Source: Novakomyces olei
Lineage: Eukaryota
Assembly (NCBI GenBank): GCA_016906335.1
Contig: JADEYG010000001.1
Span: 310,001-374,000, forward strand
Direction of reading: 5' to 3'
Length of the DNA: 64,000 bases
This document shows, one piece after another, positions 28,965 to 59,563 of this stretch. The notes under the pieces were generated by a model, which was given only the letters and a program-made list of their open reading frames with translations, was not told the origin of the DNA and did no database searches. The translations under genes and the position numbers were made by a program. Position 1 is the first letter of the stretch. Each line of letters opens with the position of its first letter.

Positions 28965-29691
28965 TGTCATGATCCCCGCCTCGAGTGTCATGATCCCCGG
29001 CTCGCGCGAACCACGACAACGAACGACGCCTGAAGTCCTGTAGCGCCAAAGGCGATGACTTCAGGCTAGATAGATCTAAATAGCTCGCGCGAGGTAATGT
29101 TGGACATTACTCGCGCGAAGCGCGTAAGTGGCCTAGCTCGCGAGCAGGTTGGACCTGGCTCGCGCGAAGCAGGTCCACGTCCATGCCCGCGCGACGTAGG
29201 CACGTCGCGGCGCATGACAGTAGTAGTAGCGATCGCGCATCGCTACGAAGCTAGATAGATCGATCCATAGAGTTCATAGCTCGCCACCGCTTTCCCAATG
29301 CGGATGGTCTGGGACCATCGCATTGCGATCGTGGTGGGATGAGGCTTAGGCCGCGAAGTGGCTGAGCGAGCCGCTAAGCCTCATAGGATAGTCTACATAG
29401 TCGCCCATGGAGAGAACTTTCTCCACGGGCTTATAATCTCAAAGTTGCTACATAGCCTTGTAGCAGGTAAGCTTTAGAGAAGCGCCGTCGCCTTTTCAAG
29501 GACAACGTCCTTTTCCTTTTCTTTAGTTCTTGCGCCGGGCGCAAGTCTACGTTCCCGTTTCTCGGTACTCGCTTCGCGCGGTACCCGATTGAACTTCTTT
29601 TGTCGAGCGGTCTCGCAAAGGACGGTCCGTGTTCGCCTGTAGCGACACGCGAGTTTACACCGCGGTGCTCCCCTCTAAGGTCCACCTTACA
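28965..29691 (+). mobile_element. Solo LTR, family B, with a duplicated 21-bp 5' terminus
   Basis: Matches the LTRs of element B; TSD CATTT (28960-28964, 29692-29696). Confidence 0.92.
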
Positions 29692-29881
29692 CATTTGAAG
29701 ATAAAACAGTTGCAACATTCATTTCATTATTTGTAACATCTGATTTAATTTCATATGACGTTTTTTCTTGTGCAGTAGATTCAGCCTTTTCTGAATTATT
29801 TGTAGATGTGTCCGCTGTATAATTATTCGATAATTTATCGCCATTTTCCAAATCATTTCGTATTTGGGACTCATTTGTAGG

Positions 29882-30980: not shown

Positions 30981-32207
30981 TGTCATGAAATGACATAGTA
31001 CAGCAGTTGGCGTTGTCGACAATGTTGTAAGGTGGCCCTTAGAGGGGAGCACCGCGGTGTAAACTCGCGTGTCGCTACAGGCGAACACGGACTGTCCTTT
31101 GCGAGACCGCTCGACAGAAGAAGTTCAATCGGGTACCGCGCGAAGCGAGTACCGAGAAACGGGAACGTAGACTTGCGCCCGGCGCAAGAACTAAGGAAAA
31201 GGAAAAGGACGTTGTCCTTGAAAAGGCGACGGCGCTTCTCTAAAGCTTACCTGCTACAAGGCTATGTAGCAACTTTGCGATTATAAGCCCGTGGAGAAAG
31301 TTCTCTCCATGGGCGACTATGTAGACTATCCTATGAGGCTTAACGGCTCGCTTAGCCACTTCGCGGCCTAAGCCTCATCCCACCACGATCTCAATGCGAT
31401 GGTCCCAGACCATCCGCATTGGGAAAGCGGTGGCGAGCTATGAACTCTATGGATCGATCTATCTAGCTTCGTAGCGATGCGCGATCGCTACTACTACTGT
31501 CATGCGCCGCGACGTGCCTACGTCGCGCGGGCATGGACGTGGACCTGCTTCGCGCGAGCCAGGTCCAACCTGCTCGCGAGCTAGGCCACTTACGCGCTTC
31601 GCGCGAGTAATGTCCAACATTACCTCGCGCGAGCTGTTTAGATCTATCTAGCCTGAAGTCATCGCCTTTGGCGCTACAGGACTTCAGGCGTCGTTCGCTG
31701 TCGTGGTTCACGCGAGGCGGGGATCATGACAGTTGTCTGCTGAGTGTTCGTTGTTTAAAGTTTCGTATTTGTTTTATAGTATAAGAGTCTCTATTAGAGG
31801 CTTGAGCACTAAGTTCGTAGTTTTTGTTAGCTTAGTATTTTAGTGTGCTTGACCCTTTTAGAGTCATATGCACTATAGTGTTTCAGCCCACTTATACTCA
31901 ACTATAAGGAGGCTTAGTTAGTTTAGGATCACGCCACTCTTGCGTGATCGGAAGGATTATATATAGAGGACCCAACTCCTCTTAGTCCTTCGTGCGATAT
32001 ATTATTATTCATTATTATTGTTCCTAACTATTATTTCTAATTAACGCTATTCTATTAGTATGCGTTTAGTACCACTCAGTTTTCCTGGCAACTCCCTGCT
32101 GGAAGGTCAGCGTGCTTACTGACCGCAGTGGCACTGAACCAGACAGAGAGGTTGTGTTAAGCCCGGAAAGGAGGACCTCCAACGACAATCGTCCCCCTTT
32201 TTTAACA
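30981..32207. mobile_element. Probable LTR (family D) interrupted by a family B LTR
   Basis: Begins TGTCATGAAATGACA, ends TTTTAACA; TATA-like core near 31957; flanks do not give a clean TSD. Confidence 0.45.
31026..31731 (-). mobile_element. LTR, family B (706 bp)
   Basis: Reverse complement of 45534-46239; flanks AATGT/GTTGT do not match fully. Confidence 0.9.
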
Positions 32208-36702: not shown

Positions 36703-37710
36703 TAGAACTCTTAAATGCGCGTAGTAACGAAAGCTTTTATTACTATAAGGCTCTGCCAGTCGTACGCGGCTGGCTACAGCAGGGAACTCCAGATGGAAAT
36801 TATTTCTTCCAACAAAGTTGATTAACCGTAAAGCTAAAAGAGAGAAGCCCCTTTATATCCTTTACGGACTACGTACTAACTAATGTCACTAACTATAAAA
36901 TAACTCAAGGACTATCTCAAGCAGGGTTTAAAAAGGCTAAGCCTCAACATGTAAGCTAAACTACTTTACTCGGTGCAAGTTCTTTGCAAGTTGCACTGTA
37001 CTAGCACCATGTCAGATGCGAACCATGAAATAAGGGGTCTTTTACCCAAGCCAAGCATCCAAATGGTTTTTCATAAATTAAACGATTGTCGCGATTAAAC
37101 CACATTTGATAAGGAGTTTTATCGTAGCCTTTGATTGGCTGTTGATTTCTCAAAACTATGGCGTGCTCGAATGCGTCCTCCCAAAATGTATCCGTTAGTT
37201 TAGAATCAATTAATATGCATCTTGCGATTTCTTGGATCGTACGATTAAGACGCTCAGCCACTCTATTTTGTTCTTGATTGTATGGTACTGAGGTTTCGTG
37301 CCGAATTCCCTTTTCTATAAAATAATTATTTAATTTTGTATTAACAAATTCTCGTCCATTATCAGACCGTAGTCTTTTAATTGTGATTTTCTTTTGGTTT
37401 TCAATATAGGAAATAATATTTATCAGCGCTTTAGCTGTATCTCCTTCAGTTTTCAAGATAATCCAAAACACAATTTTTTCGACCACCCATAGCGAGTAGA
37501 ATCCGTTTGTTTCCATTTCTTGACGAAGGAAAGGTCCCATAACGTCAGTATGAAGTAGGTCACATGGTTCTCGTTTTGTTTTACTATTCTCTGGAAATGG
37601 ATTTCTTGTAATTTTTCCTTTTGCACATACTTCACAATTTTTAATTTCTCCTGCACTGGCTTCAGATATTGGTTCAATTTGTGTTCTCTTAGACATTTCA
37701 ATCATCTTGG

Positions 37711-38404
37711 TGTAATGGCCCTTAGAGGGGAGCACCGCGGTGTAAACTCGCGTGTCGCTACAGGCGAACACGGACCGTCCTTTGCGAGACCGCTCGACAA
37801 AAGAAGTTCAATCGGGTACCGCGCAAAGCGAGTACCGAGAAACGGGAACGTAGACTTGCGCCCGGCGCAAGAACTAAGGAAAAGGAAAGGGATGTTGTCC
37901 TTGAAAAGGCGACGGCGCTTCTCTAAAGCTTACCTGCTACAAGGCTATGTAGCAACTTTGCGATTATAAGCCCGTGGAGAAAGTTCTCTCCATGGGCGAC
38001 TATGTAGACTATCCTATGAGGCTTAGCGGCTCGCTTAGCCACTTCGCGGTCTAAGCCTCATCCCACCACGATCTCAATGCGATGGTCCCAGACCATCCGC
38101 ATTGGGAAAGCGGTGGCGAGCTATGTACTCTATGGATCGACCTATCTAGCCTCGTAGCGATGCGCGATCGCTACTACTACTGGCATGCGCCGCGACGTGC
38201 CTACGTCGCGCGGGCATGGACGTGGACCTGCTTCGCGCGAGCCAGGTCCAACCTGCTCGCGAGCTAGGCCACTAACGCGCTTCGCGCGAGTAATGTCCAA
38301 CATTACCTCGCGCGAGCTATTCAAAGCTACCTAGCCTGAAGTCATCGCCCTTGGCGCTGCACGTCGTTCGCTGTCGTGGTTCGCGCGAGGCGGGGATCAT
38401 GACA
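37711..38404 (-). mobile_element. Solo LTR, family B (diverged)
   Basis: Matches the family B LTR; TSD CTTGG; splits the Copia HHCC region. Confidence 0.92.
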
Positions 38405-38949
38405 CTTGGTCAGTAAGGCATGCCCTTGACTTCTGTGAATATCGTAGCCATTATTTTTTGATAAATTAAAAACAAAAGTAGCCTTAAGCAATTCAGAAAT
38501 ATAAATTTCGCCATTTGATAAGCGCGTAATTCCCGTCAAGAATTTTCCTTTTTGTTTTGTTTTAAGATTTTAAAAATCAACTTTTAGATTATTATCCAGT
38601 AGAAGACCAAGAGAAATCAGATTGCAAGGTGCACTCTCAACGTAGCAGACATTATAGATTGTTGCCTCTTTACCATTAAGAATTATCTCAATGTCACCTT
38701 GTGTGTCCGCTGTAATACTTTGTCCATTGGCTATCTTTAATGATTTTTTAATTGATTTTGTATTAACAAGCCAATCCAGACGATTTGTAATATGTACGCC
38801 AGCTCCAGAGTCAATAATAAATGTAGCGCTATCACTTTCAGTAGGCTCAGCTTCATTTGTTGCAAAGTCATTGGTTAAATCTCACCATTAATGCTATTTT
38901 CTCAGAATCGGTTTTTGTATTTTTCTTCTTTAAGAACCAGCATTGTTTG

Positions 38950-40957: not shown

Positions 40958-42646
40958 TTGAGATTTTGCAAAATTGTTTTCTTTGAGCTGCAAAATCGAC
41001 ACATCATTTAGCTTGTTAGGTGGTGACTCAATACAAAGCAATTTAAAGTCCGCCAAGATTACACGTTGGCCTTGACAGGGAGTAGCAAAGGATAGGCAGA
41101 TAGAAGAACTAATCTCAAAACACTTATATTAAGCGGAACCTTGGTTTTTGTAACGTTCCGAACCCAGTAGAAGGATATCCCCTTCTTGTACTTGAGCTCT
41201 GCTCGTTACTTGCCGAAGATCCCATTCTACGAAACTACTAAAGTAACTAGCTTATTGCAGAAGTGCTATAGTCAGCGCTCTAAGCGCTACTCTAAGCAAC
41301 TTCCTACAATACTACTAACTAAACTAGCTAAACTAAACTAAACTACGAAGTTGCTTACTCAAGTGCTCCCAGCACCTTTCTAAGCAACCCCTGACACAGC
41401 TCTTTCGATCTCCTATGTATTTCGAAAATACTTTTCCATGCTCTATAGTTATAGGATTGATGTCATGATCCTCGCCTTGGCGAGTCCCTGACAGCCGCGT
41501 TGGGAAGCGAGGGGCGACGCCTGTAGTTGGAGTTGGGTTGTCCGCGCGTCGCAAGCTTCGCCAACGCGGCCCAAGACCAGTCGGCGCGTAACGCGATGGT
41601 CTTGGGATGTAGAAGTTGTCTTAGTGCGCATGTAGGTACGCGCACTAAGCCAGCTTGGCCCACGAGAGCGAGGGGCTCCATGCACAATGTGCACGGACCT
41701 CGCTTCCCGTTCTCATTCTCGCACGCTAGCGAGTGCGACCCTTCGCACTCCGCTTGTAAGACGGTCCTTACAGCTACAATCGCTGGAGGCCGGCCGTGTA
41801 TAGTTTAAATAAAGTAAAGGAATAAGAAAGACCAGGAAAGCAGAAAGCGATTACTGTAAAGCTTACCAGGAGTAATATAATATATTACTCCCACTTTGAG
41901 ATAATCAACCCGTGAAGGGCGAGAGGCCTTCACGGGCAACTATAAACTAAACTAAGTTGCGGAGGAGCGGATGCTCCTTCGCATTCTAAACTACTCTTCC
42001 CAAGCTAACTTATGCGAAGGTCGCACAAGTTAGAGAGGGAAGCTCTCAGCCTAAACTAATCTATGAAATAACTATGAATGTTCTCGCGCTAGCGGAGTGC
42101 GAAGGGTCGCACTCGCTAGCGTGCGAGAATGAGAACGGGAAGCGAGGTCCGTGCACATTGTGCATGGAGCCCCTCGCTCCCGTGGGCCAAGCTGGCTTAG
42201 TGCGCGTACCTACATGCGCACTAAGACAACTTCTACGTCCCAAGACCATCGCATTACGCGCCGACTGGTCTTGGGCCGCGTTGGCGAAGCTTGCGACGCG
42301 CGGACATCCCAAGTCCGACTACAGGCGTCGCCCCTCGCTTCCCAACGCGGTTGTCAGGGACTCGCCAAGGCGAGGATCATGACAGTATCCCCCCCTCCCT
42401 TGGGCGAGGTCCCCGCGCCCGCAAAACATAAAATATTCCATAAAAATAGAAAGGCGAACAAAATAAACGCTAATTTCAATTGCCGCGTGTCACAATAATA
42501 TTTTCTCCTCAGTAAACGCGTAAATAAACATATAGAATAGCATGGGAAATAAAAGGGGTGTTCGCGTTTTGTTGCAGAGGGGTAAAGAGGCAAAACGCGA
42601 AGATAAATAGTATCCAGTCGCGTTCGCAAAGACAGTTCTGAACGCG

Positions 42647-43078
42647 ATGTCGCTTGCACGTGTGACTGTGTCCGAGAAGCCGTGCGGCTATTGTGTTTCG
42701 CAGGGGAGGCGCTGTGAGTTCTTCATGACAGCCATCCCTCGCGTCCGTCGCTGCTTAGCGTGTGCGGCGCGTAAAACCAAGTGCGAGGGCGCGATGTTTA
42801 TGTCGCCGACCCTGTTGAATTCGCGCATACGCGGGTCGATCGTCGAGCGCGAGTATCGTAAGTATGATAACGCTCGTAAGGCAAAGTTGGCCTCCACTGT
42901 TCCTCGCGTTGCGACGCCCGTTGTAGAAGTCGCCCAATGCGCGGCAACCGATTCGTCTGAGGGCCTCGGGGTTGCTGTTGAAAGAGCATTGGCCGCTAAA
43001 GATCGCGAAATCGATTCGCTCCGTCAGCAGGTCCTAGAGCTGAAAGCGGAAATTTCGGCTTTGCGCGGCTTGGAATGA
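42647..43078 (+). CDS. Antisense accessory ORF of element C: Zn(II)2Cys6-like cluster + C-terminal coiled coil
   Basis: C-x2-C-x6-C-x12-C-x2-C-x6-C (CGYCVSQGRRC...CLACAARKTKC); heptad-like KDREIDSLRQQVLELKAEISALR; homologous to 51113-51568. Confidence 0.8.
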   Translation: MSLARVTVSEKPCGYCVSQGRRCEFFMTAIPRVRRCLACAARKTKCEGAMFMSPTLLNSRIRGSIVEREYRKYDNARKAKLASTVPRVATPVVEVAQCAATDSSEGLGVAVERALAAKDREIDSLRQQVLELKAEISALRGLE

Positions 43079-43290
43079 GCGCCAAAATTCTTCAAATATG
43101 CGATACATCTTGTTTTGATTTTAATAATTTTTAATACATTTTCAAAAAAAAATTTCCAAATAGCGATAAATAACTAGTGCGAATTGTGTATTATATCGCA
43201 GTCGTAAACAAAAATCAAGAGTTGAGTCTCGCGATTGCGTAAGATTACGTGAGTTGAATGACGTAACCTGTATCGCGATTAACGTAAACA

Positions 43291-45533
43291 TCATAGCTTC
43301 GGCTTAGCCGGGTGTAATCTGTGAAATTCTTTCACTAAATCGTCGCAATTTGTCAAATTGCCTGCCGGCTCCCAAGTGCGATTAGCACTATCGTATCCCT
43401 TCCAATGTACAAAATATTCCAATTTATTTCTTCGCTTCCTGGAGTCCAACACTTTCTCTACCTCCCACTCTGGTGTATTCTCAATTATTATTGGTGGTGG
43501 TGGTGCTGTCTGCTGTCGCACAATCGTAGACGTAGACTTGTACGATTCCAATAAAGAAGCATGGAATACAGGATGTATTTTCATCGTGTTCGGTAAATCC
43601 AACTTGTATGCACGTAAACCGATACGTTCCAAGATTGTAAAAGGTCCAATTTTCTTGTAATCCAACTTGTCGCTTGGCCTAGTGGTACTGATGTTCTTTC
43701 TCACTAGCCATACTTTTTGGCCGACTTCAAAATCCTTGTCGACACGGTGCGTATTAGCAAACCGTGCTTGATCGCTAATGGCGTGCTTGATCTCAATCTG
43801 TAAAAGGCGATGTAGTGTCCTCAAAAAATCAATCCGATTGTCCGCCGATGGGCATTGCCGTGCTGTTGCTATCGTAAAACGGCATTTGGGGTGATACCCA
43901 TACAAAGCATAACTAGGTGTCGCTTTTGTCGATGATTGCTCAGTATTGTTATATGCGAACTGTGCAAAAGGTAGCAAGTTTACCCAATTCGTTTGTTGGT
44001 AATTGCTGTAAATTCTCAAATATTGTTCGAGGCTCTGATTAAGCCTTTCCGTTTGTCCATCGCTCTGGGGATGGTACGCAGTTGATAACCTTTGCTTGAT
44101 ATCACAATGTGCGAGTAAATGCTTCGTAAAATGTGATACGAAAACTGATCCACGATCTGAGATAATTTCTTCTGGCAGTCCAAAGTTAGCAAATACTCTG
44201 TGAGCGTATAGCAATGCTAGTTCTTTCGCGCTCATGGTCTCGCATATTGGTACAAAGATGCCTATCTTCGTAAAGCGACATACTATAACCCAAATTGAGT
44301 CGTAGTCTTTGCCTGTGATGACATCTCTTGACACCGGGAGCTTCACAATGAAGTCCATAGCAATGCTTTCCCAAGGCTTTGTAGGTACTCGCAACGAATG
44401 TAATAGACCGTAGGGAGCATGATGCGATGATTTACTTCGTGCGCAAGTGTCGCATGACTCCACATAGTTAAATACGTCCTTTCGCATCCTTGGCCAGTAA
44501 TAGTTCCTTGTCACAAGCTCTAGCGTCTTAGCCTGTCCGGGGTGACCTGAAGTCTGCGAATCATGACATTCTTGCATGATTGATAATCGCAAATCGTTGT
44601 CTCTGGGTATGTAAATCAAACCCGAGAACATTAAAAGACCTTCCTTGTCCATTGTATAATTCTCCAAATGAGCAGCATCGGGCTTGCTCTTTAACTCCTC
44701 AATGATATTCTTGCAAATGCTGTCCTTCTCGTAGCATTTCTTAACATCCTGTGCTAGCGTTTTGTTGTCCTCAATCGCAAACACAAATTGCGATTTGTCC
44801 AAAAGCACCATTGTTCGTTCTGGCTTTTCCTCCTCTTCGCTGCTAACGTAATCGCTTCTTCGCGATAAGGAGTCAGCCTTGTGGTTAAACTTTCCCGCAC
44901 GATACACGATCACAAAATCGTAAGACGCAAGTAACTGCGACCAGCGCATTTGCCGTCTATTCAGGACACGCGCGGTCCAAAAGTACACAAGATTGCGATG
45001 ATCCGTGTATATCGTGGTTTTGTGAAGGGGACTCTCCAAGTATACCCTCCATTCCCGAAGACATACAACAATAGCTAATAGCTCCTTGTCGTGAATGTCG
45101 TAGTTCGTCTCTGCGCTTGTCATCTTGCGCGAGTAAAATGCGATTGGTCTCATGTCGCCGTTTTCATCCTTTTGCGAAAGGATCCCGCCTATCGCAAAAT
45201 CTGAGGCGTCCGTTTCCAAGAAGCTCGGCTTTTGTGGATCGAAGTGCACAAGAATAGGTGCGCCTAAGAATGCATCCTTCAACGCATTGAATGACTCCCT
45301 GCATTCGTCGCTAAACACGAACTTTGTATCCTTCTTTAAAAGCCGGGTAAGAGGTGCCGTAATCTTGCTGTAGTTGGCGATGAATCTTCGGTAATAGTTC
45401 GCCAGTCCCAGGAACGACATAACCTCCTTAACATTCTTTGGCTCGGGCCATGTTTCAATCGATTTGACCTTCGTATTTTCCATCGACAGACCTTTCGTTG
45501 AAATCACGAAGCCAAGAAACTCCGTTGTGTCGG
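43291..45533 (-). CDS. pol: Pol of element C, 3' part (RT end, RNase H, integrase, chromodomain)
   Basis: ETDASD, HHCC, MDFI / SDRG / SDGQTERLN, GPF, EWEVEKVLDSR...WKGY...TWEP; frame is continuous with 52438-53748 once element B and one TSD copy are removed (CEFHTD|TTEFLG). Confidence 0.93.
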
Positions 45534-46409
45534 TGTCATGATCCCCGCCTCGCGTGAACCACGACAGCGAACGACGCCTGAAGTCCTGTAGCGCCAAAGG
45601 CGATGACTTCAGGCTAGATAGATCTAAATAGCTCGCGCGAGGTAATGTTGGACATTACTCGCGCGAAGCGCGTAAGTGGCCTAGCTCGCGAGCAGGTTGG
45701 ACCTGGCTCGCGCGAAGCAGGTCCACGTCCATGCCCGCGCGACGTAGGCACGTCGCGGCGCATGACAGTAGTAGTAGCGATCGCGCATCGCTACGAAGCT
45801 AGATAGATCGATCCATAGAGTTCATAGCTCGCCACCGCTTTCCCAATGCGGATGGTCTGGGACCATCGCATTGAGATCGTGGTGGGATGAGGCTTAGGCC
45901 GCGAAGTGGCTAAGCGAGCCGCTAAGCCTCATAGGATAGTCTACATAGTCGCCCATGGAGAGAACTCTCTCCACGGGCTTATAATCTCAAAGTTGCTACA
46001 TAACCTTGTAGCAGGTAAGCTTTAGAGAAGCGCCGTCGCCTTTTCAAGGACAACGTCCTTTTCCTTTTCCTTAGTTCTTGCGCCGGGCGCAAGTCTACGT
46101 TCCCGTTTCTCGGTACTCGCTTCGCGCGGTACCCGATTGAACTTCCTTTGTCGAGCGGTCTCGCAAAGGACAGTCCGTGTTCGCCTGTAGCGACACGCGA
46201 GTTTACACCGCGGTGCTCCCCTCTAAGGGCCACCTTACACTATTATAAGCCCGTGAGCTCGTCTAAGCTACAGATTTACACGGCGTTGAAAGGTGTCACG
46301 CACGGAGGCGTACACAAATTTCGATTTACAAGTTTTATTTCGCACTAAGTTGTTGCGACGAAGGGTGCTTTGCTACGGTTTAGCAGCACAAACGAATTAT
46401 TGAATTACG

Positions 46410-47357
46410 ATGAGTCAAGAGGACTTGAACGCGTTTCTGCAGACGCTGCAGGCGCAGATCGCGTCGCTCCAAGAGGAGCGCGTTAAGGACAAATCGGTTA
46501 TTGAAGGCCTTCGCCAGGAAATGGGATCCCGGGGATCTCGACGATCAGGAGTCAGCGAAGGGCCAAGCATTTCGAAGCCGGATACATTCAGAGGTGATCG
46601 CAGATCGGTGGATACTTTCCTTGCACAGGTTCGCTTATACGTGAGACTCAAGCCACATGAGTTTCGCAACGACGAAGCGAAGGTCCTGTTTGCGGTATCT
46701 TATCTGCGCGGTGCCGCTTTTGCGTGGTTTGAACCCCACTTGCGCGACCACGATGAAAGCCTAATTACCAGTGACTTTGCCCTGTTTTGCGACGAGCTCT
46801 CCACGACATTTGGGAGCGTCGACCGCATTAGTCAGGCTGAGCGGGAGCTAGCATTGCTCAAACAGCGAGGATCTGTTGCTGAGTATACTTCGCGTTTTCA
46901 GCAGATCACTTCGCACTTGGATTTTAGCGATCACAGTTTACGCTACGAATATTATCAAGGATTGAAAGATCGAATTAAGGACGAATTATCTCGGTTGGAA
47001 AAATCGCGTACATTGTCAGACTTAATTGAGAAGTCTGTACGCGTGGACGAAAGGTTGTCGGATCGTTACTACGAAAGCGCTAGCCGTACGAACGCCAAGG
47101 GCGCTTCAGGCTATAGGGGCGCGACGATCGCGAACAAAGGATACACTCCCATGGAGGTAGATGCTACCAGTTACGAAAAGAAGAGCATTACCAGCGACGA
47201 ACGCCAGCGTCGAAAGAAAGAGAACAGATGTTTTACGTGCGGACGCGAAGGTCATCGCGCACGTGATTGCAAACAGAAGCAACGCAATTATGAGCAACGC
47301 ATCTCGGTGGTTATGGACAGTATCACGGAACCGGGAAAAGCGAGAGCCCAGGTCTAA
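46410..47357 (+). CDS. gag: Gag of element B
   Basis: [53 protein letters not shown] at 47333-47339. Confidence 0.93.
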   Translation: MSQEDLNAFLQTLQAQIASLQEERVKDKSVIEGLRQEMGSRGSRRSGVSEGPSISKPDTFRGDRRSVDTFLAQVRLYVRLKPHEFRNDEAKVLFAVSYLRGAAFAWFEPHLRDHDESLITSDFALFCDELSTTFGSVDRISQAERELALLKQRGSVAEYTSRFQQITSHLDFSDHSLRYEYYQGLKDRIKDELSRLEKSRTLSDLIEKSVRVDERLSDRYYESASRTNAKGASGYRGATIANKGYTPMEVDATSYEKKSITSDERQRRKKENRCFTCGREGHRARDCKQKQRNYEQRISVVMDSITEPGKARAQV

Positions 47358-50300
47358 AAGAAAGGCCTGATCTGGGCGTTAATGACACGAGGCTTTCGGA
47401 GGTGATGTCAGTGGTACCCGAACCTGACAGAGGAATACATCTCACAGTTACTGCAAATTTGAGAACTAGCAAGGGCCAGCTGGACGCGAAGGCGCTGATC
47501 GACTCAGGCGCGACGTCGAATTTTATCAGCCAGAGCCTTGCTACGAGAAGCATAATCGATATAACGAAGAAGGCGAAGATTGAGCCACTACGAGTTGTGG
47601 ATGGAAGAGCGATTCGCACCGGAGGTGTTCGCTTCCAGACTGAAAACATGGAGGTCACCATAGGCGAACATCGCGAGACTATGATGTTTAACGTGATACC
47701 GCTCTCTGGACACGACGTTATTTTAGGAAAGCCATGGCTCGACAAACATGAGCCAAGGATTGCATGGAGACGTGCAAAAGTCGAATTCGAGTCTTCCTAT
47801 TGCTTAGCAAACTGCCTCAAGAAGCCCGAGGCACAAGACGAACCATCGCAAATCAGTGCGACGGAATTTGCTAAGCTATCGCGAGGCAACGACTCGGGAT
47901 TGCTGTGCGTATACGCGACCGACGCTAAAAGCGAGGACAAAAACGTCGCTATACCTCCCGAGTATGCAGACTTTCGCGATCTTTTTGAGAAAAGAAATGC
48001 AGACATTCTACCACAGCATCAGGCGTGGGATCACGCAATACCGTTGACAGAAGGCGCGAAGCCGCCGTTCGGGCCTATATATCCTCTGGCCGAACGCGAG
48101 CTACAAACACTACGCGACTACATTAAAGACAATCTAGCGAAGGGATTCATTAGGCCGTCTTCATCGCCCGCGGGGGCTCCAATTCTTTTTGTGAAAAAGA
48201 AGGACGGTTCGCTGAGACTGTGCGTAGATTATCGCGGGCTAAACGCGGTAACTGTCAAAAATCGCTATGCGCTGCCGCTCATATCGGAGCTATTGGATCG
48301 CATTCGTCAGTCGACGATATTTACGCGATTAGATCTCCGTGGCGCGTATAATCTTGTCCGTATACGCGAAGGCGACGAGTGGAAAACCGCCTTCCGTACG
48401 CGTTATGGACATTACGAATATCAGGTTATGCCTTTCGGGCTCACGAACGCCCCGGCATCTTTCCAAGCTCTTGCGAACGACACATTACGCGATTGTCTGG
48501 ATCGCTTTGCTGTTGTATACTTGGACGACATCTTGATCTATTCGGACACCGAGGAGGAGCATGTGACGCATGTTCGCGAAGTACTGAAACGACTTCGCAA
48601 AGCAAACTTATTTGTGAAACTAGAGAAATGCGAGTTCCACACAGACACGACAGAGTTCCTAGGCTTTGTTGTCTCTACGAAAGGAGTGTCTATGGAGAAA
48701 GCGAAAGTTGATTCTATTGAGACATGGCCTGAACCCAAGAACGCGAAAGACGTTATGTCGTTCTTAGGCCTATCAAATTACTATCGCAGATTTATTGCAA
48801 ACTACAGCAAAATTACCATCCCTCTCACCCGCTTACTGAAGAAGGATGCGCAGTTTAATTTCTCCAAGGAGTGCATTGACTCTTTCCAAACTCTGAAGAA
48901 CGCTTTTCTGGGTGCGCCGATCCTTGCGCATTTCGACCCGCAGAAGCCAAGTTATTTGGAAACCGACGCATCGGACTTCGCGATCGGTGGGATTCTCTCG
49001 CAGAAAGACAACAGCGACGAAATGAGACCCATCGCGTTCTACTCGCGAAAAATGACTAGCGCGGAAGTAAACTATGATATCTACGACAAAGAGCTGTTAG
49101 CTATTGTCGCATGTCTTCGCGAATGGCGAGTTTACCTGGAGAGTCCGTTACATCGCACTACAATTTATACGGATCACCGCAATCTCATGTACTTTCTTAC
49201 AGCAAGAGTACTTAGCCGTAGACAGATGCGATGGTCGCAATTGATCGCTTCCTATGATTTCGTTATTGAATACCGTGCTGGAAAGCTAAATCACAAAGCG
49301 GATGCCTTGTCTAGGCGAAGCGATTATGTCGGCGATAAGGAACAGGAGAAACCAGAGCGAACTATGGCACTATTGGACAGATCGCACTTCCTGTTCGCGA
49401 CCGTAGAAGATACAGGCATTGATGATCAGATTAAACAATGTTACGGCAAAGACAAGACTTGCAAGGTTGTCATGGAGGACCTCGGCAAGCAGCCAGTGTC
49501 GGAACATCTGCGAAACTACAGTATAAACGAAAAGGGTCTTCTAACGTTTTCGGGTTTGCTATACATCCCAAACGACAATCGTTTGCGATTAGCTATACTA
49601 CAGACATGCCATGATTCGCATGTCGCGGGTCACCCTGGCCAGGCCAAAACGTTGGACTTAGTCATGCGAAACTACTATTGGCCACGCATGCGAAAAGAGA
49701 TATTTAGCTACGTCGAGTCGTGCGATACTTGTGCGCGAAACAAGCCTTCGCGACATGCACCGTATGGACTACTACACCCACTGAGAGTACCAGCGAGACC
49801 CTGGGAAAGTATCTCAATGGACTTCATTGTGAAATTACCGGAGTCGCGCGATGCGATTACACAAAAAACCTACGACTCCATATGGGTAATCACCTGTCGA
49901 TTTACGAAAATCGGAATATTTATACCAATACGCGAATCTATTAAGGCTACTGAGCTAGCTTTGATTTACGCCCATCGCGTATTTGCCAACTATGGCCTAC
50001 CAGACGAAATAGTCTCTGACAGGGGTTCGGTATTTGTATCGCAGTTTACACGACACTTGCTTTCGCAATGCGATATACAGCAGAAGTTGTCTACCGCGTA
50101 CCACCCACAGAGCGACGGCCAAACAGAGAGGCTTAACCAGATCTTAGAGCAATATCTGAGGATCTACAGCAACTATCAGCAAAGCAATTGGGTCAATTTG
50201 TTACCTTTTGCTCAATTCGCGTACAACAATTCAGAGCAGTCGTCTACAAAGACAACACCGTTTTACGCTTTTTACGGCTACAACCCGAAATGTCGCTTTA

Positions 50301-50885
50301 CGATTTCATCTTCGCGACAATGCCCATCCGCGGATGAACGTATCGAATACCTACGGAATCTACATCGCTTATTGAAAGTCGAAATCGAAAAGTCTCTCAG
50401 CGACCAGGCGCGCTTTGCAAATGAGCATCGCGTCGACAAAAGTTTTGCTATTGGCGATCAAGTCTGGCTAGTGCGAAAAAAATATTAGCACTACGCGGCC
50501 ATGCGATAAGCTGGATGCCAAGAAGCTGGGACCGTTTAGGATTATCGCACGCGTTGGTTTGCGTGCATATCGCTTGGAACTATCGAAGGCAATGCGTATA
50601 CATCCTGTCTTCCACGCTTCATTGCTAGAGCGACATAACGCAGTGTCGCAGATCGCGCGAGAACAGATCGCGCCACCACCTCCAGTTATATTGGATGCTA
50701 ACCCGGAATGGGAAGTCGAGCAAGTTCTAGACTCGCGCATCCGACGCAAGCAACTTCAATATTATGTGCATTGGAAAGGCTACGACGCCTCCGACCGCAC
50801 GTGGGAGCCTGCGAAACATTTACACAACTGCATGGATTTGGTAAACGAATTCCACCGTGCACACCCGAACAAACCTGGTTCTTAA
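47333..50885 (+). CDS. pol: Pol of element B (PR-RT-RH-IN-chromodomain) with one extra base in the A-run at 50476-50482
   Basis: LIDSGA, YLDD, ETDASD, HHCC, DDE; the frame stops at 50488 and the GPF motif and chromodomain continue in the next frame to 50885. Confidence 0.92.
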
Positions 50886-51112
50886 ATGGGAATGCTAAGC
50901 GAGCTCCCTATTCGGGCGACGACCTTCAACTTTCGTCACCCACGCGAAACTAAGACTCAACTCTTAAAGTGATTTATTGATTTATTGATTATACCGCGAT
51001 TATTATTGTTTAAATTATTACGAGAAAATTATACAAAAACATATTCAATTACTTGTCGAACAAATAATATGGGACAACGCAAGGAGGAATGGCTGTTGAG
51101 TCACGCACACAA

Positions 51113-51568
51113 TTACGGACGAGCGGCACGGAGCGAAAGAATCTCGCGCTCCAACGCACGGTTGCGGCGCTCGAGGCGAGCGATAGTCGCATCGCGCTGG
51201 GCCAGCGCACTCGAAACCGAACCGACGATCGAATTTGTTGACGGAGGACCGTCATCGGCAATTACATGCACCTCGAATGGTGCCTGACGTCTTTCCTCCT
51301 GCGCTCGCTGTCGCGCGCGACGTCTTTCGCGGCGACGCTGCAGCTCCCCGCGCTCTCTCACACGCTGTTCTTCACGCGCGGCAACAAGGCGCTCGTTCTC
51401 CTCATTGTCATGAAGAAAACGGCCTCCTTCGCAACGGGTGCGACGTGCCGCGCAGACCATACAGCGACGCACAAACGGTGCAGTGCCGAGAACGAAGCGG
51501 CACGGCAAAGAGTTTGCCACGCAATACTCGCAGGGCACGATAGCATCTCTGACATGAACAAGCGACAT
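51113..51568 (-). CDS. Antisense accessory ORF of element B: Zn(II)2Cys6-like cluster + Arg/Glu-rich helix + coiled coil
   Basis: MSL start as in the element C homologue; CEYCVANSLPC...CMVCAARRTRC with identical Cys spacing; RDATIARLERRNRALEREILSLR; TATATAA on the minus strand at ~51662-51668. Confidence 0.8.
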   Translation of the reverse strand: MSLVHVRDAIVPCEYCVANSLPCRFVLGTAPFVRRCMVCAARRTRCEGGRFLHDNEENERLVAAREEQRVRERGELQRRRERRRARQRAQEERRQAPFEVHVIADDGPPSTNSIVGSVSSALAQRDATIARLERRNRALEREILSLRAARP

Positions 51569-52437
51569 GTTGTTGTTGATCCGGAACGCAGAGCGAAAAT
51601 TCTTGTTTTGCATCCGCAAATTACTTTATATTACTTAGATAGTTTATTGCCGAAAGCGCACTTATATAGCAGTCTAGTAGCTAACGTGGTTTTCATAGGC
51701 GCGGAGACCTCGCCCTAGAAAGGGGGGATAGTGTCATGATCCCCGCCTCGCGTGAACCACGACAGCGAACGACGCCTGAAGTCCTGTAGCGCCAAAGGCG
51801 ATGACTTCAGGCTAGATAGATCTAAATAGCTCGCGCGAGGTAATGTTGGACATTACTCGCGCGAAGCGCGTAAGTGGCCTAGCTCGCGAGCAGGTTGGAC
51901 CTGGCTCGCGCGAAGCAGGTCCACGTCCATGCCCGCGCGACGTAGGCACGTCGCGGCGCATGACAGTAGTAGTAGCGATCGCGCATCGCTACGAAGCTAG
52001 ATAGATCGATCCATAGAGTTCATAGCTCGCCACCGCTTTCCCAATGCGGATGGTCTGGGACCATCGCATTGAGATCGTGGTGGGATGAGGCTTAGGCCGC
52101 GAAGTGGCTAAGCGAGCCGCTAAGCCTCATAGGATAGTCTACATAGTCGCCCATGGAGAGAACTCTCTCCACGGGCTTATAATCTCAAAGTTGCTACATA
52201 ACCTTGTAGCAGGTAAGCTTTAGAGAAGCGCCGTCGCCTTTTCAAGGACAACGTCCTTTTCCTTTTCCTTAGTTCTTGCGCCGGGCGCAAGTCTACGTTC
52301 CCGTTTCTCGGTACTCGCTTCGCGCGGTACCCGATTGAACTTCCTTTGTCGAGCGGTCTCGCAAAGGACAGTCCGTGTTCGCCTGTAGCGACACGCGAGT
52401 TTACACCGCGGTGCTCCCCTCTAAGGGCCACCTTACA

Positions 52438-53748
52438 GTCGGTATGGAATTCGCATTTCTCCAATTTGACAAATAAATTTGCCTTGCGAAGTCTCTCCAA
52501 TACTCCGCGCACGTGCTCCACGTGTTCTTCCTCTGTATTCGAGTAAATCAGTATATCGTCCAAGTAAACGACAACGTATCGATCAAGGCAATCTCGCAAA
52601 GTATCATTGGCGAGTGCTTGAAACGAAGCCGGGGCATTCGTAAGCCCAAACGGCATGACTTGGTACTCGTAGTGGCCGTACCTTGTACGAAAGGCCGTTT
52701 TCCATTCGTCGCCTTTTCGTATCCTAACCAAATTATATGCACCGCGAAGATCCAATCGCGTAAAAATAGTTGCTTGGCGAATGCGATCTAGAAGTTCCGA
52801 GATAAGCGGTAATGCATATCTGTTTTTGACAGTGATCGCGTTCAGACCGCGGTAATCGACGCATAATCTGAGCGATCCATCTTTCTTTTTGACAAATAAG
52901 ATCGGCGCCCCCGCGGGCGACGACGACGGTCGTATAAAACCTTTAGCGAGGTTTTCCTTGATATAATCTCTCAGCGTTTGCAATTCGCGTTCGGCGAGCG
53001 GGTAGATCGGGCCAAAAGGCGGCTTCGCATTTTCGACCAAGGGTATCGCATGATCCCAAGGTTGATGTTTCGGCAAAACGTCCGCGTTCTTCTTCTCAAA
53101 TAGGTCGCGATATCCCTCGTAGAATCCAGGCAATGTAACGCGAGGCTTGATATCTTGCTCGTCCATAGCGTACACACATAAAATACCTGATTCTCCAGAA
53201 CGGGCCAATCTTGCAAATTCGGTTGCGCTGACTTGCATGGATTCGGATAATGTACTGCACTTCAAACAGTTCGCCAAACAGTAGTTCGACTTGAACTCGA
53301 CGTTTGCGCGACTCCATCCGATCGTAGGCTCATGCTTGTCCAACCATGGCTTGCCCAAGATAGCATCGTATCCACGAAGAGGTATGACATTGAAGGTCAT
53401 CCTTTCTCGATGTTCGCCAATTGATATATCCATCTCGCTGGTGTGAAAGCGAATACCTCCTGACTTGATTGTCCTTCCATCAACGACTCTGATGGGCTCG
53501 GTCTCGCTCTTCTCCGTAAGCTTAATAAAAGCATGCGATGCGAGCTTCTCGCTGATAAAATTAGAGGTAGCTCCTGAGTCAATCAGGGCTCTCGCGTTCA
53601 ACTCTCCATCCTCTGTCTTGACTTTCACGACGACAGTCAGATGCTTTGCTTTGTCCGGTTCCGTAAAAACTGTCATAACTTCTGGTGGCCTAAATAGTTG
53701 TTTGCCCAGATCAGGCCTTTTCATTGGACCTGGGCGTTCGCTTTTCCC
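52438..53748 (-). CDS. pol: Pol of element C, 5' part (protease and RT)
   Basis: [37 protein letters not shown] slippery site at 53748-53742. Confidence 0.93.
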
Positions 53749-54653
53749 AAATCGGAAAATTCGTGCGTGAATGCAGCGACGTGTTGCTGATTGTACGTCT
53801 TCTTCTTCTGCTTGCATTCTCTTGCTCGATGACCCACGCGTCCACAGTTAAAGCATTTGATGTTGCTTTTGCGATGGTTGTCATCTTCCTTTTCTAAACT
53901 AATCGCGTCCACATCCATAGGAGTAAAACTTGTACTCGCGTTTGCAGCCGGGCGGTTGTTGGAATATTTCACGGAACCGCGGCTTGCACTCTCGATGTGC
54001 CTGTCGGATATTCTTCCATCCACGCGAACTGATATCTCAATCATTTCATTCAAAGTGCGGGGTCTGTCCATCCTGGAAAGCTCATCCTTGATGCGATCCT
54101 TCAGCCCCTGATAATACATAAACGTCAGCGCACTGTCATTGAAATCCAAATACGAAGCAATTCTTTGAAAAATGCTCGCATAAGATGCTGCTGATCCACG
54201 TTGTCTCAAGGCGGCTAACTCTCTTTGCGCCTGACTCACCCTGTCGACCTTGCCGAAATTCGCGGCCAACGCTTCGCAAAAGGCTTCAAAAGTAGGTACT
54301 ACCGAAGCGAAGTCGTTGTTGCGAAGGTGTGGTTCGAACCACGCAAATGCGGCGTCCCGCAAATACGAAGCTGCGAACAAAACCTTCGAACGCTCGTCGC
54401 GAAACTCGTGCGGTTTCAACATGATGTAAAGGCGAAGCTGCGCCAAAAAATTCTCGACCATTTTGCGGTCCCCACGAAACGCGTCGGGCTTCATCACCGC
54501 TGGTCCGTCACTCGTCGGGGCTCTCTTAGCTCGCGAACCGATCTCCTGGGTCAGATGCGCAATGTGCGATCGCCCTTTCTCGTTCTCTGCCTTCAACTCG
54601 GCAATCTGAGTTTGCAGGGATTGCAAAAAGGTGTTAAGCTCCTCTTGCGACAT
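53721..54653 (-). CDS. gag: Gag of element C
   Basis: Clearly homologous to element B gag; [14 protein letters not shown] knuckle. Confidence 0.93.
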
Positions 54654-56401
54654 CTTGTCCCTCGTACCGCAAATATCGTAATCGTAATCGTTCTTCCAGA
54701 ACCGTTCTTCGTAAATTGTTCACTCAATCGTCGACTATCCAAGCCGATACTCAATAACTCAAAATAACTGTGTTTCACCGGAACACTCGATAACTCAAAA
54801 TTCTCAAACTCGAATCCACGTCGTTCACTCGACGCTTTAACCGTTTTAACTTCCGTAAAAATCCGTAAAAATAAGTACCGAACCGCGTCTTTGACTCGAC
54901 GTCCGAAACTCTCTCGAATCCGAAGGAAATAAAACACAAACAATTCCAAAAAACTTCAAACTTCAACGACCGGGACGGGTTGATTATAGTGTAAGACGGT
55001 CCTTACAGCTACAATCGCTGGAGGCCGGCCGTGTATAGTTTAAATAAAGTAAAGGAATAAGAAAGACCAGGAAAGCAGAAAGCGATTACTGTAAAGCTTA
55101 CCAGGAGTAATATAATATATTACTCCCACTTTGAGATAATCAACCCGTGAAGGGCGAGAGGCCTTCACGGGCAACTATAAACTAAACTAAGTTGCGGAGG
55201 AGCGGATGCTCCTTCGCATTCTAAACTACTCTTCCCAAGCTAACTTATGCGAAGGTCGCACAAGTTAGAGAGGGAAGCTCTCAGCCTAAACTAATCTATG
55301 AAATAACTATGAATGTTCTCGCGCTAGCGGAGTGCGAAGGGTCGCACTCGCTAGCGTGCGAGAATGAGAACGGGAAGCGAGGTCCGTGCACATTGTGCAT
55401 GGAGCCCCTCGCTCCCGTGGGCCAAGCTGGCTTAGTGCGCGTACCTACATGCGCACTAAGACAACTTCTACGTCCCAAGACCATCGCATTACGCGCCGAC
55501 TGGTCTTGGGCCGCGTTGGCGAAGCTTGCGACGCGCGGACATCCCAAGTCCGACTACAGGCGTCGCCCCTCGCTTCCCAACGCGGTTGTCAGGGACTCGC
55601 CAAGGCGAGGATCATGACACCGCTAGCACGAGAACAATTCATAGTATTTCATAGATTAGTTTAGGTTGAAAGCTTCCCTCTCTAACTTGTGCGAAGGTCG
55701 CACAAGTTAGCTTGGGAAGAGTAGTTTAGAGTGCGAAGGAGCATCCGCTCCTCCGTAGCTTAGTTTAGTTTATAGTTGCCCGTGAAGGCCTCTCGTCCTT
55801 CACGGGTTGATTATCTCAAAGTGGGAGTAATATATTATATTACTCCTGGTAAGCTTTACAGTAATCGCTTTCTGCTCTCTTGGTTTTCTTTATTCCTTTA
55901 CTTCAATTTGAACTATACACGGCCGGCCTCCAGCGGTTGTAGCTGTAAGGACCGTCTTACAATTGGGAACAGGAAGCTTAATCAGCATTTCGTTATTAAG
56001 AGAGTTCATTATTTAAATCTTTGATTCTTTCTCTGAGGGCTCCATGCTCATAAACTGTTGGATCTTTGAACAGGGAGAGAATAAAGTGAATTAGCTTACC
56101 CAAGGTTGAAGATTCTATGGACTTGTATTTATATAAAATGAATAGATGGTTAAACCATTAAAGAGAGAATTAGTTTAACATAAATGGGATCTTCGATTAA
56201 AATCTGAAGTAGTTCAACAAGTTATATAGAGTCCAGAGTCCACTTCTCGACATTATTAAAAGCCGCTTGCTGTTGGGTACATAAGCTTACTTGACAACAC
56301 GTAGGATAGACTTGAAGAGTCTGTTCGTTGACATTTTAAGGATACAATCTTAAGTAAAGCAGAGCAGCACCCCGCGAAGATCACGGACCTGAGCCAATAA
56401 C

Positions 56402-58045
56402 ATGGAACAGCACGTGGATAAAGTGCCGCAGAACGAGCTAGGAATTCTCGACAAACTTATATCTCTGCGGCAGCGTCTTACTATTTTGAAGCTTGACCGG
56501 ACGCAGTAAGTGCAAAGTGGGAAAAAGTGGACGCCGCGGCTGAAGTTGAGAGGGGAAAAGAGAAGCAAGGGGAAATCCTTTATCCCAGCAACAGAACATA
56601 ACCCATCTTTTCAAGCCATGCCACTTATTCTCTGATAATTATCAAGTTAGCTCACATTTATACAGGTATATAAAGTCTTCGGATGTTTTAAAGATCTACG
56701 ATGATCTAGTGGGACAAGGTACGAAGAGATTTGAAGGCAAAAAGAAAAGAAAGAAAAGCGAAAGAGATATATACCGAGCTCAATAATAACTTTGCAGTGT
56801 CAAAATTGAATGAGATTCGGCAGCAGACGCATTCTCACAGGGAAGAAAATAGGGTGGATGTTGTACTGGACGATATTTTTCAGTTGATCTCATTATTCTT
56901 TCTCGCTATCGGCCGGAACACTTCGCCACCGGCTTGCTATATACAAATTACGACGGTCAAAAGGCTTCTTGATCATCTTAATGAATCAGGGGTATTTACC
57001 GAGAGCGATCTGAAAACGATCCGTCATCGCTTGGACGAAATGACAAAAATAATCAAGCAAGAGCAGGAAACTTTACCGCCGGCGCTTTCCACATTGTTTT
57101 TAGCAAAATTGGAAACGTGTGAAGTGGCATTTCGTCTTTCGGAGGAAAAACTATCTCACTTGTCCCCTCAATTAATGCCGATTCAACAACGACTGGTGTC
57201 GATAAAACGGCATTTAGCTGGACTCGCATCGAAAACAAATTTCCGACCGGAATGCTCTGAACAACTTGAGCAATTGAAGGCTGAGCTAAAAAAGATAGAG
57301 TCATTACGATCAGACGAAGGTTTATTTGTGGACAAGAATGGCAAAGCTTTAGTGGGCCAGGAAATATGCAACGGCCTGCTAACAGAGGCGTATGATTTTG
57401 CTCAAGAGCTCACTGTGCAAAAGGGAGTGAGTTCTGCCATTTTGAACGATCCGGCTTTGCGCAGTATATATGACAGGCTCTTCGAACTCAAGTCCCAGCT
57501 TGAGCGGCTAACGCTTACTCATCGATGGACGCTACGTGAAACCGATCTGTACACTTATCAAACTAGGCTGGCGGAAATTGATGCAATTAGGGTTAACGGA
57601 AAGTTTTTGGACTCAAACGGAAATGCTTCAAAGGATCAAAAAGTAATATTAATTGTTCTGTGTTTTGTGCTAACGTGTTCAAAGGTTTTGCTTTATATGC
57701 TGCGGCGCTGTTATGCGTATATTTACCAGCTTTTGTCGGCAAGTGAGCCTGTATCCGAAGGTAAGGGTAATTTTTATAATCGTACTAATTCCAGCTTTAA
57801 CGCCTATTCATAATCAATTGAAAACCGTGAGGCGCTGTCTCATCGAGGTTCGAAACAGCGGTGGCCCATTTAACGCTCGTGAGCTTTATCCGTATCAGAT
57901 GAAGCTAGCTAGTATCGATAATTTGCGTGTGGACGGAAAGTTCCTGGCTGATAATGAAGTAATTCCCGAAGGCCAAGGAGCTGTACACGCGCTTCTTGAG
58001 GAATGCTACGATCTAGTGGCCGAATTGCAGGCGGAATGTGAATAA
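56402..58045 (+). CDS. Conserved fungal UPF0662/DUF2408-like protein (YPL260W-like); four predicted introns (~56506-56665, ~56719-56797, ~57644-57684, ~57761-57794)
   Basis: NRVDVVLDDIFQLISLFFL, LTLTHRWTLRETDLY, repeated RV(N/D)GKF motifs, ELYPYQMKLASID, PEGQG; GT-AG introns with CTAAC/CTAAT branch sites. Confidence 0.8.
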
Positions 58046-59522: not shown

Positions 59523-59563
59523 AAACACCTACATCTAGCAAACGTTCACCGTAACACTAGAAA

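Follow-up and report, generated by a model that had tools for sequence, protein, structure and literature searches.

Antisense open reading frame of element C

The DNA analysed here is a 64,000-nucleotide stretch of the Novakomyces olei genome (GenBank assembly GCA_016906335.1, contig JADEYG010000001.1, positions 310,001 to 374,000), hereafter called the window, in which a minus-strand Ty3/gypsy chromovirus (element C) contains a second, nested chromovirus (element N). The list of open reading frames (ORFs) places a frame of 143 amino acids (aa) at 42647–43078 on the plus strand, antisense to pol of element C. This frame, ORF C, is located between the pol stop (43291, minus strand) and the polypurine tract (PPT) and 3' long terminal repeat (LTR) of the element (42402 and 42384, respectively), i.e. 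between the chromodomain and the PPT, as the first-pass annotation of the locus had described. Its translation, which begins with MSLARVTVSEKPCGYCVSQGRRCEFFMTAIPRVRRCLACAARKTKCEG, also reproduces the exact cysteine spacing given in that annotation (C13-x2-C16-x6-C23-x12-C36-x2-C39-x6-C46). The frame and its immediate surroundings comprise the following features:

42647–43078, plus strand: antisense accessory ORF of element C, 143 aa plus stop, with a homologue in element N
42683–42784, plus strand: six-Cys domain, C13 to C46, whose best Protein Data Bank (PDB) and fold matches are Zn2Cys6 domains
42959–43072, plus strand: C-terminal helix, residues 105–142, a predicted parallel, in-register dimerisation coil (AlphaFold2 (AF2) and dimer prediction)
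42403–42646, plus strand: spacer from the PPT to the ATG of ORF C, AT fraction 0.58, with TATA-like AT-rich runs; putative promoter and 5' untranslated region
43079–43290, no strand assigned: gap between the converging stops of ORF C and pol, AT fraction 0.68; putative 3' end of an antisense transcript

In terms of base composition, ORF C is a GC-rich island (AT fraction 0.43) flanked by AT-rich spacers, and its counterpart in element N is likewise GC-rich; approximately 100 nt of the spacer 42403–42646 are not present in element N, as judged by alignment. When the 64-kb window was translated in six frames, the Cys pattern had exactly two occurrences, one in ORF C and one in its counterpart ORF N, and none of 200 block shuffles of the same window contained it. 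Frames of this length seldom arise by chance: when the 906-nt pol-to-LTR region of element C was shuffled 5000 times, 27 of the shuffles contained an ATG-initiated ORF of 143 aa or more, and for the corresponding region of element N, 16 of 5000 contained one of 166 aa or more. Three sets of raw RNA reads labelled as the same species contained 0 reads mapping to 18.6 kb, including a host porin gene, and are thus uninformative on expression.

Homologous ORF in element N and selection on the protein

Element N carries a homologous ORF in the equivalent position:

51113–51568, minus strand: antisense homologue in element N (ORF N), located after the pol stop and before the PPT/3' LTR, 151 aa long when counted from the conserved MSL start

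An alternative upstream ATG at 51613 would extend this frame to 166 aa. ORF C and ORF N are related by blastp (E 1e-16, 44% identity over the first 61 aa), share the same MSL start and both possess a heptad-repeat helix at their C-terminal end, while all six cysteines (6/6) are conserved at identical spacing (2,6,12,2,6). Across the 52 codons of the Cys domain, positions 1, 2 and 3 are identical between the two elements at 33, 33 and 16 codons, respectively (Fisher p 1.6e-4), a pattern that indicates protein-level purifying selection in the ORF frame. Elements C and N diverged long ago, their synonymous sites being saturated in every gene; protein identity and non-synonymous divergence (dN) are as follows:

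pol, protease to integrase: 77% identity, dN 0.15–0.17
pol, SH3-chromodomain end: 67% identity, dN 0.27
gag: 58% identity, dN 0.35
antisense ORF, Cys domain: 48% identity, dN 0.53
antisense ORF, whole: 34% identity, dN 0.87

The antisense ORF is a real, conserved, element-encoded gene and not a chance frame. The first-pass annotation had proposed such a gene, and the proposal is upheld by the same-position homologue in element N together with the codon-position pattern. A chance ORF in a non-coding spacer could account for the length of the frames, which occurs in 0.3–0.5% of the spacer shuffles; however, the homologue in element N with all of its cysteines, the absence of the motif from the 200 shuffles and the constrained codon pattern effectively refute this explanation, to which we attach next to no credence.

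Predicted C-terminal coil

The C-terminal leucine-zipper-like helix noted in the first-pass annotation is recovered by AF2, which models residues 105–142 of ORF C as a single helix with a predicted local distance difference test (pLDDT) score of 81–92; the a and d heptad positions I122, L125, V129, L132, I136 and L139 lie at the predicted dimer interface. Homodimer prediction with residues 100–143 gave a score of 0.48, compared to 0.03 for the best of three controls, with a contact agreement of at least 96% and a partner pLDDT of at least 79 across runs. The predicted contacts are in register (132-132, 125-125 and 129-129), implying a parallel dimer. In calibration, the mark of the dimer score was reached by 21 of 30 solved pairs and 0 of 23 single chains of microbial origin, and by 17 of 29 pairs and 0 of 30 single chains from eukaryotes. 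The coil of ORF C is therefore predicted to form a parallel homodimer, so that the dimerisation coil that is usual, if not defining, C-terminal to a Zn_clus domain stands as a model-based prediction, although the pass may reflect memory of, or likeness to, solved coiled coils.

Wider family of antisense six-Cys and coil proteins

Direct searches with the window proteins were unproductive. A protein-collection search with ORF C alone or with the C and N pair retrieved no relatives; an exhaustive phmmer search of 1.84 billion representatives (E<=0.001) returned a single match, a spurious Cys-free repeat protein; an Atlas search with a window ORF gave scores of 0.77 or lower and no relative; an exact look-up in the protein collection found none of seven window proteins (0/7), neither antisense ORF among them; and a metagenome scan with ORF peptide patterns produced 104 pattern matches and no relative. 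In contrast to these searches, 80 metagenomic chromovirus loci, collected with the conserved C-terminus of pol of elements C and N, contained the strict six-Cys motif downstream of pol in 12 cases, all of them antisense. An alignment of the long metagenomic ORF versions, used as the query of a protein-collection search at E<=1e-3, recovered 59 database proteins as a family, 53 of which possess the six-Cys motif. The named members belong to Pyricularia oryzae (many copies), Colletotrichum, Cryphonectria, Gaeumannomyces and Microdochium (e.g. MGG_18021 of Pyricularia oryzae), and the dominant spacing is 2,7,9,2,7 (46 of the 59 proteins). The relatives are unnamed, called 'hypothetical protein' or, in one case, given an automatic DUF465-family name. 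Annotation misses these genes, with a Pfam domain in 0 of the 59 relatives and the window ORFs not present in protein collections. A literature search for MGG_18021, MGG_15916 and MGG_15807 returned nothing relevant.

In an alignment of 36 family sequences all six cysteines are invariant, which, together with the 6/6 cysteines kept in element N, answers in the affirmative the question of whether the cysteines are conserved. A hidden Markov model (HMM) built from this alignment matches 19 of the 80 loci, and 13 of the 44 loci with at least 1 kb of downstream sequence; three of its 36 rows derive from loci L032, L042 and L050, so that the matches to L032/L033, L042 and L050–L052 (near-identical copies) arise by construction. 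All 25 matched segments are antisense and are positioned at -73 to +489 bp from the end of the pol match. The long family forms begin with a basic leader; the Cys domain comes next, followed by a coiled coil in which an RLRKQ-type motif is conserved (signature ..RLRKQKK.W.EKM.RAVRRGID..EELD..), and they end in an acidic aromatic tail.

In five loci (L012, L020, L040, L041 and L045) the gene is split right behind the Cys domain by a GT..AG sequence of 47–56 nt on the antisense strand. These candidate introns contain branch-site-like motifs (in L020 a 74-nt alternative scores slightly higher), and their removal yields ORFs of 184–210 aa that match the family HMM with E values of 1e-28 to 1e-37; L028 is ambiguous and L053 contains no candidate. 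Sense genomic RNA does not permit the splicing of an antisense intron, so that the retention of such introns across copies implies that the family genes are expressed as antisense mRNAs.

The introns also bear on the possibility that the antisense RNA itself is the functional product, either controlling copy number or serving as a precursor of small RNAs by virtue of its overlap with the sense transcript, with the peptide being incidental. Overlap between the ORF and the 3' portion of the sense genomic RNA is unavoidable, and retrotransposon-derived small RNAs are important in Botrytis, according to passages of PMC8365987. Yet the retention of frame-restoring introns in family members, as well as the codon-position pattern, the invariant cysteines and an intact frame over saturated synonymous divergence, show selection on the protein, and we regard an RNA-level function as very unlikely.

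Many of the closest pol relatives of elements C and N have the next gag approximately 400–1300 bp after pol, a distance that leaves little or no room for an antisense ORF. This arrangement, pol followed by a same-strand gag within this range, is seen in L001, L005, L007, L008, L010, L011, L015–L019, L021 and L023, and is suggestive of tandem elements with a common LTR, or of circular or two-LTR forms that the assembly has collapsed.

Relationship of the window ORFs to the family

An HMM of 13 metagenomic Cys domains, from which the window sequences had been excluded, ranked ORF N first and ORF C second among 1207 six-frame segments of the window (E 8e-4 and 5.6e-3). The window ORFs and the family also share their position, abutting the 3' end of chromovirus pol, and their antisense strand. 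Set against a common origin are several observations. Alignment of the window ORFs to the family by hhalign pairs all six cysteines, albeit with an E value of 0.011 and a probability of 3.9%, and tblastn matches are weak (E 0.15 or worse). By alignment, the window ORFs possess neither the signature coil motif nor the acidic aromatic tail of the family, nor its basic leader and intron. Furthermore, in a quick and poorly resolved tree of the pol end (133 columns), elements C and N pair with a support of 99 inside a 49-row group in which none of the 26 loci with at least 1 kb downstream matches the family, while 16 of the 19 family loci fall in a separate 27-row group. The sequence evidence for homology is no more than suggestive; the window gene probably belongs with this large, unrecognised family; the differences may reflect common descent with losses or independent acquisition.

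The six-Cys domain compared with the Gal4-type cluster

The first-pass annotation had taken the cysteine spacing as defining the fungal Gal4-type binuclear zinc cluster. The spacing of both window ORFs does lie within the range of the Pfam family Zn_clus (PF00172; C-x2-C-x6-C-x5-12-C-x2-C-x6-8-C), and Zn_clus is the top Pfam match of ORF C (16.5 bits, E 0.0095). Three of nine metagenome ORFs match it at E<=1, the best with 19.5 bits and none past the curated gathering cut-off of 21 bits. A domain-only profile of 15 sequences gave 12 PDB matches at E<=10, ten of which, including the top nine places, are Zn2Cys6 DNA-binding domains, with Lac9 ranking best (E 0.0027) and followed by Gal4, Pho7, Leu3 and Cep3. 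Foldseek searches with two AF2 models returned Pho7, Put3, Gal4, Leu3, Hap1, Ppr1, Cep3, AlcR and Lac9, and in one listing Zn2Cys6 domains made up 14 of the 15 rows listed. The AF2 models contain short helices behind the first CxxC of each Cys half. The structural neighbours of the Atlas model of family member P0030 are headed by a cluster automatically named 'Zn(2)-C6 fungal-type domain-containing protein' (template modelling (TM) score 0.48), and six of nine neighbour rows point to the Zn2Cys6 fold, five of these being clusters with Zn_clus. The PDB profiles of the full-length C and N pair and of the full-length family reached coiled coils only, the Zn2Cys6 chains being reached by the domain-only profile; similarly, a wide structural-neighbour search with the full ORF C model was taken up by the C-terminal helix.

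The profile alignments are mostly crosswise, in that the first half of the family domain pairs with the second half of Gal4, Lac9, Pho7 and Leu3. In the window ORFs and the family, the first half reads P-C-x2-C-x6-C followed by a hydrophobic residue, like a canonical second half, while the second half reads R-C-x2-C-..R/K..-C-D/E-G, like the canonical first half of these four proteins. The Pfam match of ORF C is also crosswise (residues 36–48 to Zn_clus profile positions 3–15), as are those of L012 and L041; the alignment of L020 is, unlike these two, collinear. The first Cys loops of the window ORFs are VSQGRR and VANSLP, while the second loops carry a basic run (AARKTK and AARRTR), so that the earlier remark that basic residues are found mainly in the second loop is correct and holds across the family. 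A swapped order of the half-motifs would explain this placement. The crosswise alignments suggest the hypothesis that the Cys domain may be a half-swapped variant of the pseudo-symmetric Zn2Cys6 cluster, for which the AF2 models are of low confidence (pLDDT 54–67). A simple four-Cys zinc ribbon was set aside, as all six cysteines are invariant in the 36 sequences.

Several results speak against membership of the Gal4-type class. The score of ORF C is below the Pfam cut-off (16.5 versus 21 bits), ORF N has no Pfam match to Zn_clus at E<=0.1, and Zn_clus matches only 3 of the 36 family members at E<=1; to hold that the spacing defines the cluster was therefore too strong. The fold and profile matches are weak, with Foldseek E values of 0.11 or worse, TM scores of 0.44 or lower and model pLDDT values of 54–67 (54 for the domain-only AF2 model). 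The basic residues that follow Cys2 in Gal4, Lac9 and Leu3 are not present in the first loop of the window ORFs, from which the canonical pattern C-x2-C-R/K-x-K/R-K-x-K-C is likewise absent, and zinc bound by the six conserved cysteines could serve some purpose other than DNA recognition. Comparison with Zn_clus by profile and structure thus had a divided outcome: Zn2Cys6 neighbours dominate, bearing out the resemblance to the Gal4-type domain (10 of 12 matches of the PDB profile, and almost every Foldseek row), but at scores below the Pfam cut-off and from models of low confidence.

Proposed function and alternative explanations

We propose that the ORF is a selectively maintained chromovirus accessory gene whose product, a divergent Zn2Cys6 domain with a dimerisation coil, acts as a DNA-binding regulator of the element's own LTR, a reading to which we assign about an even chance. 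The gene would be read from its own transcript opposite gag-pol, between the chromodomain and the PPT, with a putative promoter in the AT-rich spacer 42403–42646 or the 3' LTR and a putative 3' end in 43079–43290. Its product of approximately 145 aa would combine an N-terminal, presumably zinc-binding, divergent Zn2Cys6-type binuclear cluster, the CX2CX6C halves of which are apparently swapped, with a C-terminal helix that would form a parallel homodimer. Such a protein would most probably function as a nuclear, dimeric, sequence-specific DNA-binding regulator on the LTR of its own element; that it binds DNA, which sequence it targets and whether it activates or represses are inferred. The longer relatives with an acidic aromatic tail would be activators, while the short window form without the tail would be a repressor, competitor or adaptor.

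A possible, though speculative, dimer site is present in the LTR of element C:

41909–41936, no strand assigned: perfect palindrome with 10-bp arms in LTR C, just upstream of a conserved TATA-like block; speculative candidate dimer site

LTR N contains a palindrome at the homologous position (52149–52176), likewise next to the TATA-like block, the arm sequence of which differs; the two LTRs are otherwise 44% identical. Since inverted repeats are abundant in both LTRs (13 and 9 pairs), the palindromes are to be taken as a lead only where their use as operators is concerned. The more far-reaching proposal, that ascomycete chromoviruses carry their own transcription factor, encoded by an intron-bearing antisense gene and composed of a circularly permuted (half-swapped) Zn2Cys6 cluster, a dimerisation coil and, in long forms, an acidic activation tail, which binds, and co-evolves with, cognate LTR palindromes, is one that we consider somewhat unlikely.

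The fast evolution of the antisense ORF (dN 0.87; gag, 0.35; pol, about 0.16) weighs against the proposed regulator. Accessory genes usually evolve faster than core genes. Fast evolution is also what would be expected of a host-interaction factor, and it thereby favours a second explanation, in which the ORF encodes a real accessory protein other than a transcription factor, whose zinc module and coil bind protein or RNA for the replication cycle, for example as a Gag or integrase partner, as a targeting or chromatin adaptor acting with the chromodomain, or as an anti-silencing shield. This explanation accommodates a gene that is conserved and constrained although formal Zn_clus membership fails, and a first Cys loop devoid of the DNA-contacting basic residues of Gal4, Lac9 and Leu3. 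Antisense ORFs between pol and the 3' LTR are known in LTR retrotransposons, and their function is given as unknown in the consulted passages of a review (PMC7264820). It is, however, less easily reconciled with profile and structural neighbours that are almost exclusively DNA-binding Zn2Cys6 domains, or with the order of cluster, coil and acidic tail in the long members, which is the layout of a Gal4-type activator; we judge it improbable, if a serious competitor.

A further explanation is that the ORF is a captured host DNA-binding stub which competes with or poisons a host Zn2Cys6 factor, thereby rewiring, for example, defence or stress genes. The window forms stop right after the coil and do not have the acidic tail, and on the pol tree the window pair is not beside the group with antisense ORFs, which allows for independent acquisition. 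Yet the phmmer search of 1.84 billion representatives identified no host-like Zn2Cys6 relative at E<=0.001, and the half-swapped order fits the retroelement family and not host factors. Host capture is, to our mind, distinctly unlikely, and the LTR regulator is retained as the preferred reading.

Binding of the ORF protein to its own LTR, if it occurs, would make this the first case of a fungal retrotransposon encoding a transcription factor, and could help to explain family-specific bursts and silencing escape of these elements. A factor binding LTR palindromes would, if real, provide each retrotransposon family with a private on/off switch, a fungal counterpart of retroviral Tax, Tas and HBZ. 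A half-swapped Zn2Cys6 domain, if confirmed, would represent a previously unrecognised topology, extending a fold thought to have one fixed topology. The window ORF itself offers a recognisable and testable architecture (a predicted zinc cluster and dimer coil) that is conserved between diverged elements, and the probable wider family is large, unnamed, multi-copy in model fungi and includes genes with antisense-strand introns.

Architecture of elements C and N

Self-comparison of the window and inspection of element ends defined element C as a minus-strand Ty3/gypsy chromovirus, the pol of which encodes RNase H, integrase, SH3 and chromodomain matches in Pfam (Chromo 59.7 bits). Element N is inserted in its reverse-transcriptase (RT) region. 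The components are:

41755–42384, minus strand: 3' LTR of element C, 630 bp, TG..CA, identical to the 5' LTR; 5-bp target duplication at 41750–41754
54990–55619, minus strand: 5' LTR of element C, 630 bp; target duplication at 55620–55624
42385–42402, minus strand: polypurine tract of element C, immediately upstream of the 3' LTR and homologous to the element N tract
43291–45528, minus strand: 3' part of element C pol (RNase H, integrase, SH3, chromodomain), interrupted by the nested insertion
52443–54653, minus strand: element C gag (53721–54653) and 5' pol part (protease, RT), from ORFs and Pfam
45534–52437, plus strand: nested chromovirus N, with identical LTRs of 706 bp at 45534–46239 and 51732–52437
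45529–45533 and 52438–52442: target duplication of element N, GTCGG, from inspection of the element ends
46410–47357, plus strand: element N gag (ORF)
47405–50885, plus strand: element N pol, with one frameshift near 50480 and its stop at 50883–50885

Both elements are recent insertions with identical LTR pairs and intact target duplications. Despite this, the frame of element N pol changes once (approximately 50478–50488) in an A-rich run just before the SH3/chromodomain, for which a very recent mutation, a homopolymer error of the assembly or some other cause may be responsible. Partial inverted copies of LTR C (94–98% identical) adjoin both ends of element C (41461–41754 and 55617–55962), and element C thus sits in older, oppositely oriented LTR remains of its own family in a palindromic arrangement. 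The N-type LTR is present in three more copies (95–99% identical, one inverted) at 28981–29695, 31021–31735 and 37708–38408, in a transposon-dense stretch that also contains copia-like integrase remains (37001–37771).

A third gypsy element spans 20694–26980, with LTRs of 322 bp at 20694–21015 and 26659–26980 (99.7% identical). Between its pol and 3' LTR, the sense strand carries an extra 410-aa ORF (25442–26674, plus strand) that includes a C2H2-like CxxC..HxxxH stretch; this ORF matched no Pfam family at E<=0.01 and was not found in the protein collection. A short-period tandem repeat is located at 4609–4843 (self-matches offset by 35–80 bases at approximately 95–96% identity). Host genes beside the transposon nest encode a DUF2408 protein (56710–57813) and a mitochondrial porin (59561–60415; Porin_3, 259 bits), and a host ORF with a C-terminal RING-like domain (62780–64000) continues past the end of the window.

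Comparison with known systems

Within the limited literature collection searched, no description was found of a zinc-cluster antisense gene in a fungal retrotransposon, and the consulted parts of two surveys of fungal LTR elements (PMC3248453, PMC2864245) contain no passage on antisense or additional ORFs. The closest published precedent of the window ORF is brtn, which passages in the literature describe as an extra gene of Boty-like elements in Botrytis and Sclerotinia that runs antisense in the interval from pol to the 3' LTR (PMC8365987, PMC7264820, PMC4227169, PMC5987419; citing Virology 417:248, 2011), and which, according to PMC8365987, has no entry in the current B05.10 annotation. The window ORF is similarly antisense between pol and the 3' LTR of a fungal chromodomain gypsy element and similarly missing from protein databases, the comparison being with the description of brtn in citing passages. 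No zinc cluster, coiled coil or wide distribution is reported for brtn in the same limited collection.

In plants, the antisense ORFs of Grande, RIRE2 and Retand occupy the position between pol and the 3' LTR, as stated in the review passages (PMC7264820). Like the window ORF, they are accessory genes opposite gag-pol near the 3' LTR, but they are unrelated in sequence and fold and belong to plant hosts. HTLV-1 HBZ, a bZIP protein, is a dimerising nuclear regulator. It, too, is encoded by an accessory gene on the strand opposite gag-pol near the 3' LTR; as a bZIP protein of another host, unrelated to the window ORF in sequence and fold, it provides a parallel by analogy only.

With Gal4, Lac9, Put3, Ppr1, Leu3, Hap1 and Pho7 the window ORF has in common a six-Cys spacing within range, a short modelled helix per half and a predicted C-terminal dimerising coil, and Gal4-type factors are the only consistent profile and fold neighbours of its Cys domain. 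It differs from them in scoring below the Pfam cut-off, in its swapped halves, in a coil located approximately 60 residues beyond the cluster, in having no middle homology region, in its length of 143 aa and in being retrotransposon-encoded. The MGG_18021-like family (loci L012–L056) has the spacing 2,7,9,2,7 (2,6,12,2,6 in the window ORFs) together with a leader, coil motif, tail and often one intron, while it resembles the window ORFs in being encoded antisense downstream of chromovirus pol and in possessing six invariant cysteines followed by a coiled coil.

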